From the NCBI GenBank assembly GCA_036679645.1, contig JAZDCY010000053.1, positions 1 through 53,069 on the forward strand: a stretch of 53,069 bases of DNA, given 5' to 3'. Position numbers and translations under genes: made by a program. The stretch comes from Gemmatimonadota bacterium. GTDB lineage: Bacteria; Gemmatimonadota; Gemmatimonadetes; Gemmatimonadales; GWC2-71-9. The notes under the pieces were generated by a model. It ran no database searches. It was given only the letters and a program-made list of their open reading frames with translations, and was not told where the DNA came from. The first letter of the stretch is position 1. Every line of letters starts with the position of its first letter. This document shows, piece by piece, positions 1 through 3,260 of this stretch.

Positions 1-394
1 GGACGCCGCGTCGATTTCGGCGAGACGGCCTTCGACGATCGCGACGCCACCGCCATGGTCGTCCCCGTGCCGCGCCTCGATCCCGGCATCTACACCGTCG
101 CTTGGACGACGCTCTCCAGCGTCGACGGACACACCTGGAACGGCACCTTCAGCTTCACCATCCTCAACCCCGACGGCACCGCCCCCCTCGGCGTCGCCTT
201 CACCCTGGACGTCAACACGCCCGGCCCCCCGGCCGCTGCCGACGCCGCCATGAAATGGATCACGCTTACCGCCACGCTGGCGCTCGCCGGGGCGGCGCTC
301 TTCGCCCTTGTCGTCGCCACCCCGGCCGCGCGTGCGCTTGGCGCACCGGCGGCGCTGTTCGGGCGTCGCGCCGTGGCGCAGGCCTTTAGCGTCG
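1..394 (+). pseudogene. CopC/CopD-like copper-resistance protein, 5' partial, coding sense lost at a REP-like element
   Basis: Frame open from base 1: GRRVDFG...PGIYTVAWTTLSSVDGHTWNGTFSFTI (CopC C-terminal YTVxW..S.DGH motif), followed by a hydrophobic CopD-like first helix. After ~395 the frame just translates repeat DNA. Confidence 0.7.
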
Positions 395-451
395 CCCCAC
401 CGCCTTTCAAGGCGGGCCGCGCGCAGCGCGCCGAGCCGGGGCTTCAGCCCC
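395..451 (+). repeat. REP-like unit A, copy 1 (57 bp, two hairpins)
   Basis: Identical to 1216-1272. Contains hairpins CCGCCT-TTCA-AGGCGG and GGGGC-TTCA-GCCCC. Confidence 0.9.
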
Positions 452-469
452 GGAACACTCGTGTAGCCA

Positions 470-585
470 CGTCCCGCTCCCGCCGGTCTGCGGACCCGCG
501 CTCCCGCGTCCCCGCTGCTCCGCGACCTCGCGCTCCCACTGCTCCGCGACCCCGCTGCTCCCGTTGCTCCCGCTGCTCCACGACC
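470..585 (+). repeat. Degenerate ~9-bp tandem tract (CCGCTGCTC/GCTCCCGCT-like)
   Basis: Repeated gctcccg/ctgctcc units between REP units A1 and B1. Confidence 0.6.
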
Positions 586-619
586 ACACACCGTTAGCCC
601 ATCGACGTCGCCGTCGCAA

Positions 620-670
620 TTCGCGCGTTGAAACGCGCGCTCGGCGCTACGCGGCGCGCCATACAGGCGC
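620..670 (-). repeat. REP-like unit B, copy 1 (51 bp)
   Basis: Matches 1159-1209 with 2 mismatches. Minus strand contains GTAG-CGCCGAG-CGCGCGT-TTCA-ACGCGCG. Confidence 0.9.
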
Positions 671-745
671 GGTCTGCGATGAAAGGCGCCACCGACAGGT
701 GAGAACGGTGAAAGCACTCCGCGCTCACCGTGGCATGTTGGCAGC

Positions 746-1138
746 GTGACCAGCTCCCTCTTCCTCCACCTCACGTGGGCCACGCTTGAACGGCGTCCCA
801 TGATCGGCGCGCCTGTGGCCGAGTTCTTGGAACGGTTTCTCCCAGCGGAGGCGCGACGGCACGGTGCGCAGGTGATCGCACTCGGGGTCGTCTCGGATCA
901 CGTGCACCTCTTGCTGCGAGTCCCGGGCCGATTCGACATCCCCCGTCTGATGCAGGGCCTGAAGGGTGCCAGCGCGCGGGTTGCCAATCGGGATGGGGTC
1001 GGCGTCGTGGGACTCCGTTGGGCCCGCGGGTACGACGCCCGATCCGTCGGTCCACGACGGCTGTCCGCAGTGGCGTCATATATTCGCGAGCAAGCTAGGC
1101 GGCATCCCGACCGGGTGCCTCGGGGTTCGACGTATTGA
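746..1138 (+). mobile_element. tnpA: IS200/IS605-family (Y1 HUH) transposase TnpA, REP-associated
   Basis: LFLHLTWAT N-terminus, HUH motif DHVHLL, LKGAS, RWARGY, catalytic YIREQ (YxxxQ). 130 aa; no tnpB nearby. Confidence 0.88.
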
Positions 1139-1158
1139 GGCAAGTCTAGTCACGCGGG

Positions 1159-1209
1159 TTCGCGCGTTGAAACGCGCGCTCGGCGCTACGCGACGCGCCA
1201 TGCAGGCGC
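1159..1209 (-). repeat. REP-like unit B, copy 2
   Basis: Near-identical to 620-670; starts 20 bp after the tnpA stop. Confidence 0.9.
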
Positions 1210-1215
1210 TTCCCC

Positions 1216-1272
1216 CCCCACCGCCTTTCAAGGCGGGCCGCGCGCAGCGCGCCGAGCCGGGGCTTCAGCCCC
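1216..1272 (+). repeat. REP-like unit A, copy 2
   Basis: Identical to 395-451. Confidence 0.9.
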
Positions 1273-1315
1273 TGCCCATACTTCGCAACAGTCCGGGGCC
1301 CTTAGCTCAGCTGGT
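1273..1315 (+). repeat. Duplicated -10 box, leader and 5' end of tRNA-Ile2 (att-like direct repeat)
   Basis: tgcccatacttcgcaacagtccggggcccttagctcagctggt versus 2980-3020 tgcccatacttcacaacagtttgggcccttagctcagtggt. GGGCCCTTAGCTCAG at 1296-1310 is identical to 3002-3016. Confidence 0.85.
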
Positions 1316-1450
1316 GATTGAATCTTGGTCCACGAGGGTGGCCGCCAACTCGGCGACTACTGCGAAGGCCCGATGCAGGTCGAATTCGGCAGAGTCCCGT
1401 GCTCGTAACACCGCGTGCAGTTGTTCGGGTCGTGCAAGTTGACGTTTCAT
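1307..1450 (-). CDS. Small hypothetical protein (47 aa, MKRQLARPEQ...)
   Basis: ATG-to-TGA ORF read by hand; it stops inside the tRNA fragment. No recognised motif. Confidence 0.3.
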   Translation of the reverse strand: MKRQLARPEQLHAVLRARDSAEFDLHRAFAVVAELAATLVDQDSITS

Positions 1451-1518
1451 GCTTGTATGCTCATTGTCTCAAATTGCCTGCCAAGCAATCATGGCGAAAT
1501 AGAATACCATCTCGTGAG

Positions 1519-1647
1519 ATGATTATGGCTCCCCCCGCGGGAAGGGTGGCAAGCAAAGGCGAGAGCGCACGGAGCGACACGCTCACTCCTGAGCGTCGGG
1601 CCGAGATTGCTCGGGAGGCGGCTGAATACCGGTGGAAGAACTCGTAG
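1519..1647 (+). CDS. Small basic protein with an 'AR...LTPERRAEIAREAA..RW' motif (mobile-element-associated, P63C N-terminal-like)
   Basis: Resembles the GGxARAxxLTPExRxEIARxAAxxRW motif. Overlaps the Fic 3' end convergently. Confidence 0.5.
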   Translation: MIMAPPAGRVASKGESARSDTLTPERRAEIAREAAEYRWKNS

Positions 1648-2833
1648 GAATAACGCCGGTTGTGAACACCGACGTCCCGCTGGCCGTGACCGTTGGCATC
1701 GACGGCTTGGAGGTTTTTGTCTCCTCGAACGGATCATGAATCGCCCGGGGTTCAAGCCCCCGCTTCCGTTCGTCCAGTAGCTTCTTGCTCGCCACATAGT
1801 ACCGGCCCCGCTTTTCCCCCTTCGCGTCAAGCAGTGCTGCTTCCACAAGTGCCCTGAGATCCAGACTTGCCACCTGCTCGCTCACATCAGCGACGGGACG
1901 GTAGGTACTGTTTCGCACCTTGAACCCGGCGGCGGCATCCCACAGGGCCAATGCCGTTCGCTCCGGCAATCCATCATGCGTCACCAGTTCCTCGAAAATG
2001 GTCATTAGTCGTTCTGATTCCCGGGCCCGGCGCAGCAGCGTTTGGGCTTGGAAGCTATGGGCGCGGAGACAGAACCGGATCCACGCATGTGCATCGTTCT
2101 CCGGATGCCAGCTTCCACTGCCCGTGTCGGCCAGAATGTCGTAATACGCCCGATGGCTGTTTCCGAGATACTCCTCGATGCTGGAAAAAGGAGGCTCGAG
2201 GGTTCCGGCGCGACTGAGAACCAGCGTCTGTAAGCAACGGGCCATGCGTCCGTTCCCGTCTGAGAAAGGATGAATCATGACGAGGTTCAGGTGCGCCATG
2301 GCAGCACCCACAAGCTCTGGTGTGTCGCCCGGTGTGGCTAATTGGTCCACGAGTTCGTCCATGAGATCGGGAACCATAACGAAGTAAGGACCCTCGTAGA
2401 CCCGCTGTCCTTTGTCTTCGTCAACAACGAAGACGGCCCCCGGACGCCACAGACCGGGGTTCTTGTCGAGATCGTATTCCAGCATGATGAAGTGCAGGGC
2501 CTTAATGACCCCGGCGGACCATTGAAAATGTTGATCGCGAGACAACCCAAGCACATGCGTCATGGCCCGCCGGTATGTCCCGGTTGCTAGGCGTGTCGCT
2601 TCGTTCGCCTCGACGGCTTCACCCTGCGCCGCCGCCACCACATCGTCCTTGGCGATCTGGTATCCCTCAATGCTGTTGGAGCCCCGAATGACCCGCCCGA
2701 GCGTGCTTCGCCGCAGGAGACCGGTCCACCGCCGTGGTACACGCAGCAGATGGCGAAGGTTGTCCCGCGCCTCGTCAATCTGGGCGATGACCTCATGGTC
2801 CTTTCGGCTCATCTTCGGAGTGGTGTAGAGCAT
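1583..2833 (-). CDS. Fic family protein (AMPylase-like) with probable C-terminal winged HTH
   Basis: Canonical HPFSDGNGRMAR motif, SNSIEG N-terminal motif, C-terminal DLRALVEAALLDAKGEKRGRYY. Confidence 0.92.
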   Translation of the reverse strand: MLYTTPKMSRKDHEVIAQIDEARDNLRHLLRVPRRWTGLLRRSTLGRVIRGSNSIEGYQIAKDDVVAAAQGEAVEANEATRLATGTYRRAMTHVLGLSRDQHFQWSAGVIKALHFIMLEYDLDKNPGLWRPGAVFVVDEDKGQRVYEGPYFVMVPDLMDELVDQLATPGDTPELVGAAMAHLNLVMIHPFSDGNGRMARCLQTLVLSRAGTLEPPFSSIEEYLGNSHRAYYDILADTGSGSWHPENDAHAWIRFCLRAHSFQAQTLLRRARESERLMTIFEELVTHDGLPERTALALWDAAAGFKVRNSTYRPVADVSEQVASLDLRALVEAALLDAKGEKRGRYYVASKKLLDERKRGLEPRAIHDPFEETKTSKPSMPTVTASGTSVFTTGVIPTSSSTGIQPPPEQSRPDAQE

Positions 2834-2960
2834 GGAAATACAGTTACTTTCCCAAAGCAGTGATACAGTTAATATCTATATTTCCATGCCGATGTAAAGC
2901 TACCTCAGGACGACGGCGGCGGGCGCGTCCCCACTGTTGGCCCACAGTCAGGATTTCAAG

Positions 2961-2989
2961 TTGAATTGGGGTGCAGCCATGCCCATACT
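2961..2989 (+). promoter_or_regulatory. Sigma70-type promoter of tRNA-Ile2
   Basis: TTGAAT-17 bp-CATACT, 12 bp upstream of the tRNA. Confidence 0.7.
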
Positions 2990-3001
2990 TCACAACAGTT
3001 T

Positions 3002-3074
3002 GGGCCCTTAGCTCAGTGGTTAGAGCAGCGGACTCATAATCCGTCGGTCGTAGGTTCAAATCCTACAGGGCCCA
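3002..3074 (+). tRNA. tRNA-Ile2 (CAT, lysidine type); elongator Met less likely
   Basis: Cloverleaf: acceptor GGGCCCT/AGGGCCC, anticodon loop CTCATAA, T-loop GTTCAAATC. C4-G69 and C5-G68 pairs and overall resemblance to ileX. CCA is not encoded. Confidence 0.9.
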
Positions 3075-3127
3075 TTACCGCCGCGCCGTACACATGGCGT
3101 CGTGTGGACCCTGTGGCTTCCCCTCGC

Positions 3128-3161
3128 TCGCGCCTTAGCCCCGCCAGCGGCTAAGGCGCGA
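3128..3161. terminator. Strong hairpin downstream of tRNA-Ile2
   Basis: 13-bp perfect inverted repeat TCGCGCCTTAGCC/GGCTAAGGCGCGA; no U-tract. Confidence 0.45.
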
Positions 3162-3260
3162 TCATCGGGTCAAAGCCTACTGGGCTCTCCGTAGCATTGG
3201 TATTCCCCCGCTTTCGCGGACGCTTCCGAACAGGTTCATATTGGGTCAGGAGATGTGCGA

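Follow-up and report, generated by a model that had tools for sequence, protein, structure and literature searches.

IS200/IS605 transposases and group 3 RAYTs pick their cut site through a four-base guide 5' of a hairpin, and in the guide GTAG the AG selects CT and the TG selects CA (PMC8266576). IS200 TnpAs are obligate dimers, a state they owe to three features that RayT lacks, namely a Thr, a Pro and a long first strand; RayT is monomeric, and how it could coordinate its cuts at the two ends of a unit is not readily explained (PMC3479197). REPINs were defined with a spacing of 71 bp, and a RAYT dimer has been proposed (PMC3116915). [quoted passage not shown] (2018; PMC6006769), which has a CnGA foot as in the locus described here, resembles both IS and REPtrons and was regarded as a possible evolutionary intermediate.

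We analysed a window of 53,069 nucleotides, which is contig C50 (JAZDCY010000053.1) of a Gemmatimonadota genome from its base 1 onwards. Judged by sequence, it probably holds a REPtron- or REPIN-like system that is run by an IS200-type enzyme, is mostly sedentary and is accompanied by a dispersed family of GCCGAG-footed double hairpins. The repeat family is apparently undescribed and common in one Gemmatimonadota family, and the system is likely a new branch of an arrangement already in print. A full-text literature search, with most subscription papers, figures and the Bertels member lists outside its scope, returned no description of this clade or repeat, and neither CCGAG nor Gemmatimonas was found in the accessible part of PMC3733652.

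Layout of the locus

The tnpA gene (746–1138, plus strand) encodes a 130-aa HUH/Y1 transposase of class 1 type, as identified by Pfam, NCBIfam and motifs, with no adjacent tnpB. It is flanked by two kinds of repeat unit, each of which, read away from the gene, consists of an inner hairpin, a linker, GCCGAG and a 7-bp outer hairpin with a TT[CT]A loop, usually followed by AA. As originally predicted, unit A (57 nt) occurs at 395–451 and 1216–1272 without mismatch, unit B (51 nt) at 620–670 and 1159–1209 with 96% identity, and the cores of A and B lie on opposite strands.

The first copy of unit A (395–456, plus strand; DNA fold z −3.2) comprises an inner hairpin with TTCA loop (400–415), the foot GCCGAG (430–435) and the 7-bp outer hairpin with TTCA loop (436–453), followed by AAC. 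Sequence comparison places a spacer with internal short direct repeats (457–619) between it and the first copy of unit B (620–671, minus strand), in which the inner hairpin (671–655), an incidental GTAG (650–647), the foot GCCGAG (645–640), the outer hairpin with TTCA loop (639–622) and AA follow one another away from the gene. A degenerate inverted copy of the inner hairpin region of A, 82% complementary to 401–422, occupies 667–688 (minus strand). Downstream of the gene, the second copies of B (1159–1209, minus strand; foot CCGAG 1183–1179) and A (1216–1272, plus strand; foot CCGAG 1252–1256) are the left and right halves of a doublet. The palindromic A-B-tnpA-B-A parse of the original prediction is partly a product of assembly, and the repeated unit is this inverted B-A doublet. 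No sigma-70 promoter or terminator pattern was found in 380–1400, and an Rfam search gave no match for the repeats, only tRNA passing.

The transposase belongs to class 1

The prediction of a lone HUH transposase with an IS200-type YIREQ motif was confirmed. TnpA carries H52-V-H54, W92, Y112-x3-Q116 and H120 (YIREQARRH; WA) and has no C-terminal tail; H54, W92, Y112, Q116 and H120 are invariant across 31 aligned relatives. It scored 73 bits with Pfam Y1_Tnp and 59.6 bits with the NCBIfam IS200/IS605 model (cut-off 55), and only 26.1 with the NCBIfam RAYT model NF047646 (cut-off 80), which identifies it as an IS200-type enzyme. The short core without an extra domain, the Y-x3-Q motif and the HUH motif are those of class 1.

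A profile built from the alignment of 31 relatives matched the ISDra2, IS608 and archaeal IS200 TnpAs in the PDB, and E. coli RayT was not found there at E-values up to 1. The AlphaFold model (pLDDT 93.6) gave ISDra2 and IS608 as best matches by E-value and RayT at rank 30; superposition of the single chain had its lowest rmsd on the monomeric RayT (2.7) as against 5–13 on IS200 TnpAs, whereas E-values favour the latter. The first strand is long (residues 4–13), Ser or Thr is present at position 100 in 31 of 31 relatives, and Pro at position 60 in 24 of 31; this Pro coincides with the IS608 position or precedes it by one residue, and is one residue off in the TnpA of the window. Because of these three features, a dimeric enzyme is favoured, and TnpA probably keeps the IS200 dimer, whereas RayT is a monomer.

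Phylogenetic placement was based on two trees whose group labels were assigned by motif and not from published member lists. Tree 1 had 47 rows after wrong-frame, partial or unpicked ORFs were dropped and near relatives thinned; tree 2, also with near relatives thinned, added eight rows of class-3-like proteins that had been located by way of the class 3 repeat. In tree 1 TnpA lies in class 1 (98/97), outside IS200/IS605 (98/99) and the subclass-1.2-like rows (98/88). In tree 2 the TnpA clade (86/88) is one of four class 1 lineages (92/87), the IS200/IS605 clade (89/98) leaves it out, subclass-1.2-like proteins are separate (100/99) and class 3 stands apart (99/97). The protein is thus inside class 1 and not between classes, and the original label of an IS200/RAYT intermediate does not hold in a phylogenetic sense.

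Two assignments fit poorly on these and related grounds. The mobile IS200/IS605 elements (subclass 1.1; IS608, ISDra2, IS200) share with TnpA the HUH motif, Y-x3-Q and short core and are closest in solved structure and sequence, but TnpA lies outside their clade, has no tnpB and no near-identical gene copies (its own paralogs are 47% and 39% identical in aa), and its surroundings consist of inverted multi-copy units. RAYTs or TnpA-REPs (class 2) are disfavoured by YIREQ in place of Y-x3-NP, the low RAYT profile score and the CCGAG foot in place of GT[AG]G.

At least 29 of the top 150 profile matches (among them P0124, P0127, P0128, P0135 and P0137), mostly subclass-1.2-like, are proteins of 253–315 aa with two tandem Y1 domains. 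In several, the catalytic Tyr of the first half is replaced by Phe or a different residue, with the second half intact; from their sequences, these could be single-chain TnpA dimers with one active site.

A dispersed family of CCGAG-footed double hairpins

The idea that the repeats form a REP-like family of their own was borne out by a genome-wide count, in which 43 dispersed hairpins carried a CCGAG foot; this removes the possibility that the units occur only at this locus. CCGAG stood directly 5' of 43 of the 160 genomic seven-bp hairpins with TT[CT]A loop, and the next 5-mer 5' of only 5. Looser hairpin scans did not raise CCGAG above permuted feet, fixed geometry being needed. The proposed link to GTAG-REPs failed: the GTAG noted in unit B is present, but lies 7 nt off the stem with CCGAG intervening and is found within 12 nt of only five of the 43 copies (four B copies and one other). 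GTAG was thus ruled out as foot, also because GT[AG]G is at background around homologs, where the equivalent pattern was found at 5 of 60 loci as against 31 of 89 controls.

The stems covary. With hairpins selected on foot and loop only, 212 of 357 cells were paired in the own genome (shuffles: mean 125, maximum 156) and 226 of 294 in relatives (mean 137, maximum 167); without a pairing filter, covariation exceeded all 1,000 shuffles. Conservation past the outer hairpin is limited to about two bases (AA), with no target tetranucleotide, and the commonest flanking 16-mer has 12 copies. Eleven of the 43 copies overlap crudely called genes, which cover 84% of the genome, and many copies lie just after genes.

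Nine foot-to-foot pairs 64–74 nt apart were counted in the genome, one in the window, one on C38, four on C8 and one each on C9, C68 and C75. PF01797 has only four matches in the genome (C50, C53, C92, C99), and B-A doublets on C8, C9, C68 and C75 are without the gene. In the predicted fold of the doublet the two feet pair with each other and leave the outer hairpins free (z −1.3 and −3.0). The organisation is that of REPtrons and REPINs, with foot-hairpin repeats flanking the gene, further copies dispersed mostly between genes, and inverted doublets. At C38:48900–49810 (G000), on a contig without a Y1 gene, five double-hairpin units that represent a further subtype were observed in tandem, 180–215 nt apart.

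Two related paralogs in the genome have repeats of their own. The C53 paralog (47% aa identity) is flanked by an inverted repeat subtype with its own dispersed copies. The C92 paralog (39%) is flanked by a second repeat family with 37 pattern matches, both strands counted, which is present at C92:24800–25600 (G000; L002) and dispersed, and has a CCCCGGGC stem, a GTCA loop and 20 copies of its commonest 16-mer. TnpAs of the C92 type form a separate clade (98/88) with homologs in relatives.

Distribution and retention among relatives

Sixty homologous loci were collected from species-representative genomes through one peptide pattern, so that they are kin and not independent; 55 are titled Gemmatimonadota. 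With the pattern widened for 5-nt loops, the motif is present on both flanks of 48 of 60 homologs and of 10 of 89 controls, and, with the stricter first pattern, on those of 32 of 60 and 2 of 89. The number of units in the arrays differs between orthologous loci.

The repeat-pattern count covered 121 genomes of the class. The own genome had 46 matches (control 5), and counts of at least 24 were reached by seven of 22 genomes of the same family and by none of 98 others (maximum 13). Six of the seven repeat-rich family genomes have a homolog above 130 bits. Among 55 genomes searched, strong homologs were confined to the family of the window, and none of the homologs in 33 genomes outside it exceeded 65 bits. 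Exceptions are G254 and G276, which have strong homologs yet background counts, and G288, with many repeats and only a 101-bit match.

Some orthologous sites are retained across species, one pair of loci (L074/L079) being 75% identical along 2,962 nt that include the gene, a second (L067/L075) 87% and a third (L047/L055) 76–90%. Of 106 flanks, no more than 41 have context in common with another locus, the other 65 having none. Gene pairs within a genome are 72–94% identical in nucleotides and none of 13 reaches 95%, the highest being unlinked copies in G019 at 94.4%, with the reservation that draft genomes can collapse copies. Several within-genome pairs at 90–94% together with mostly unique flanks indicate that the gene moves or duplicates; orthologous sites that are kept, few shared flanks and pairs below 95% thus suggest that it persists and also relocates or duplicates slowly.

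The comparison of orthologous loci for empty sites, put forward with the original prediction, gave retention at some sites across species and no clean empty site. At the tRNA-Met locus of relatives, where such a site was sought, G001 (same genus, without tnpA upstream of the matching tRNA) and G002 lack tnpA, and the flanks do not align; in the G021 stretch the tRNA was not located. A locus titled Burkholderiales is nearly identical, flanks included, to a Gemmatimonadales locus (L037/L039), which is probably bin contamination.

Proposed mechanism and alternative explanations

In the REPtron-like reading, TnpA would bind GCCGAG-footed hairpins as its substrates and would cut and rejoin single-stranded DNA at them, whereby gene-less inverted B-A doublets would spread in REPIN-like fashion. 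The last four foot bases, CGAG, may be the guide, and the analogy to AG in GTAG would suggest C|T, and perhaps also C|C, as the sites they select. A probably dimeric enzyme would act on exposed single strands, pairing of the two feet within a doublet would hide them and limit activity, and the tandem arrays beside the gene would come from local amplification. We tentatively suggest an independent domestication within the IS200-type class, in which a still-dimeric TnpA mobilises REPIN-like doublets via a CGAG guide.

The locus resembles REPtrons and REPIN-RAYT systems (class 2; E. coli RayT, P. fluorescens REPINs) in the inverted foot-plus-hairpin units that flank the gene, the dispersed inverted doublets about 70 nt apart, the paralog-specific repeat families and a foot ending in AG. 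It differs from them in having neither a GTAG foot nor YxxxNP, in a RAYT model score far below cut-off and in a profile that misses RayT in the PDB. Modest copy number, mostly unique flanks, the lack of a clean empty site at the loci compared, the exceptions G254, G276 and G288, the shifted Pro and the low rmsd on RayT count against the REPtron-like reading. If it is true, REP-like systems extend beyond the proteins of class 2 and class 3. A dimer could then make the cuts at the two doublet ends in concert, for which the structure of the monomeric E. coli RayT has no explanation, and separate domestications may have taken up an old guide, the CnGAG foot that class 3 has as well. The locus would be a tractable system for REP doublet movement: guide-directed cutting and the excision of doublets could be tested directly on an IS200-type enzyme that is compact (130 aa), has a doublet family of its own and goes with a foot other than GTAG.

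The strongest alternative, unlikely in our judgement, is a slow, ordinary IS200-like IS, with B-tnpA-A as the autonomous element and the B-A doublets as internally deleted, MITE-like derivatives, without any domestication. A short class 1 protein without extra domain fits this explanation, as do the placement of the gene with a B half on one side and an A half on the other in L054, L057, L069 and L070, the second tandem copy that begins in L058, the 94.4% identical unlinked copies in G019 and the many unique flanks. Against it, the two feet sit on opposite strands, while elements of the IS200/IS605 type transpose in a strand-specific manner (PMC8266576), and placement of TnpA in the IS200/IS605 clade was narrowly rejected (AU p 0.041). 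The lack of 95% duplicates in 13 pairs, orthologous retention at 25% divergence and the conservation of little more than AA beyond the outer hairpin, with no target tetranucleotide, also argue against an ordinary IS; a search of 72,556 plasmids, in which the phylum is probably scarce, yielded no match at 60% identity or above and weighs little on the same side. The REPtron-like reading is therefore favoured, although the two are not fully exclusive.

It is improbable that the locus belongs to an already described group, namely Bertels IS200 Group 3 or Quentin subclass 1.2 or class 3. The consulted portion of PMC5581495 presents Group 3 as an IS200-family protein with no recent duplicates, absent from plasmids and with abundant, repeated flanking 16-mers, for which a link to RAYT domestication was proposed; the locus behaves alike, but its likeness is qualitative, by behaviour and not by member sequences, the Group 3 repeats having been counted as 16-mers. 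Class 3 shares a Q-type tyrosine motif, W[TA], several flanking hairpins, dispersed copies and repeats starting with the same CnGA(G), and a sister relation of the TnpA clade to it was compatible with the data (AU p 0.124), the profile comparison with class 3 covering only 74 columns. Class 3 was nevertheless rejected: its proteins have Y-x4-Q, about 178 aa and an N-terminal extension, go with bulged hairpins that have a GTNA loop and group in a clade of their own (PMC6006769 for the published features), whereas the present ones have Y-x3-Q, 130 aa, TT[CT]A loops and two hairpins per unit. A class-3-like query gave one weak match in 61 genomes of the same family, and at 74 viral-contig loci with class 3 repeats (L093–L166) our profile found no Y1 gene within 1.5 kb.

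Subclass 1.2 resembles TnpA in its class 1 membership, low copy number, divergent paralogs and His after Q (Y-x3-Q-x3-H here). It was rejected because its proteins have WQ, Q-x2-HH and a C-terminal tail and a clade of their own, and TnpA and its relatives have WA or WE, Q-x3-H and no tail; the available list of Quentin et al. (2018) also gives no REPs for it. In our set, subclass-1.2-like tnpA genes at L022 (G005:C188), L182, L188 and L190 have outward-facing repeated hairpins. Among the supplements seen, 'Gemmat-' had no match in those of Quentin and Gemmatimonas none in that of Bertels.

There is little chance that the repeats are RNA or DNA elements of the host, dispersed by another agent, into which tnpA merely inserts as a target. 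The gene-between-halves layouts do resemble insertion into a doublet and many copies follow genes directly, but each paralog has its own repeat subtype, the repeats and the TnpA clade are distributed alike at family level, enzymes of this class are known to have a foot plus hairpin as substrate, and the repeats show neither an Rfam match nor a terminator pattern.

Assembly of the locus

Read depth was taken from the contigs of one public run, possibly the source sample, in which 86% of sampled words are present. A unique 564-nt contig of this run spans 624–1187 at a depth of 102.6 and the right doublet (1163–1272) has a depth of 199.9, about double, from which we conclude that B-tnpA-B and the duplicated doublet are real; 1273–3046 has a depth of 89.5. 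That the duplication is an assembly artefact, a caveat of the original prediction, is scarcely conceivable, since separate contigs, possibly of the source sample, carry B-tnpA-B and the double-depth doublet and the same layout recurs in the 48 of 60 homologs, and the caveat applies to the edges only (394/395 and 1272/1273), C38 ending in the same repeat.

At the left edge, bins over 1–321 have a depth of 2.5–3.3, compared to 89–103 in unique stretches to the right. Positions 1–394 (plus strand; Pfam CopC) hold a fragment of a copC-copD fusion gene that ends at the repeat and corresponds to residues 87–218 of a 785-aa CopC-CopD-cytochrome homolog (69% identity). The middle part of this homolog has no match in the genome, and elsewhere only aa 43–146 (34%) and the C-terminal cytochrome region match. 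The fragment is probably foreign, from another organism and outside the element, and the 394/395 join chimeric; the alternative, a resident copC gene into which the element inserted, is disfavoured by the depth drop and the missing remainder of the gene.

The reverse-complemented contig C38 ends in flank-B-A-spacer-B-A, its last 57 nt being identical to 395–451 and its last 114 nt to 1159–1272; the spacer between its two doublets is a 152-nt variant with an 18-nt deletion and few other differences. Judging from these matches, unit A copy 1 likely belongs to a B-A doublet as its right half, the left half lying at the C38 end, and the true locus likely reads flank-BA-spacer-BA-spacer-B-tnpA-BA with the array continuing on C38, or has one doublet fewer. 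At the right edge, the public-run contig under 1273–3046 extends left through an intact end of A and 37 further letters, so that the last stem bases of A copy 2 and about 42 nt in all are missing from the window at 1272/1273.

Neighbouring genes

On the far side of the array, C38 (L181) carries at 428–3183 ORFs that, going by their translations, we take to be HPr-kinase-like, nucleotidyltransferase-like and PqqD-like. To the right of the element, a promoter-like stretch and the 5' end of a tRNA-Met(CAT) gene (3001–3075) are duplicated upstream (1273–1313 and 2977–3016). The two tRNA 5' stretches bracket an island (about 1314–3000) with a gene for a 416-aa Fic-domain protein (1583–2833, minus strand), which, by this arrangement, looks like an insertion at the tRNA 5' end that restored the tRNA. 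The same-genus genome G001 carries other genes at the position of this island.
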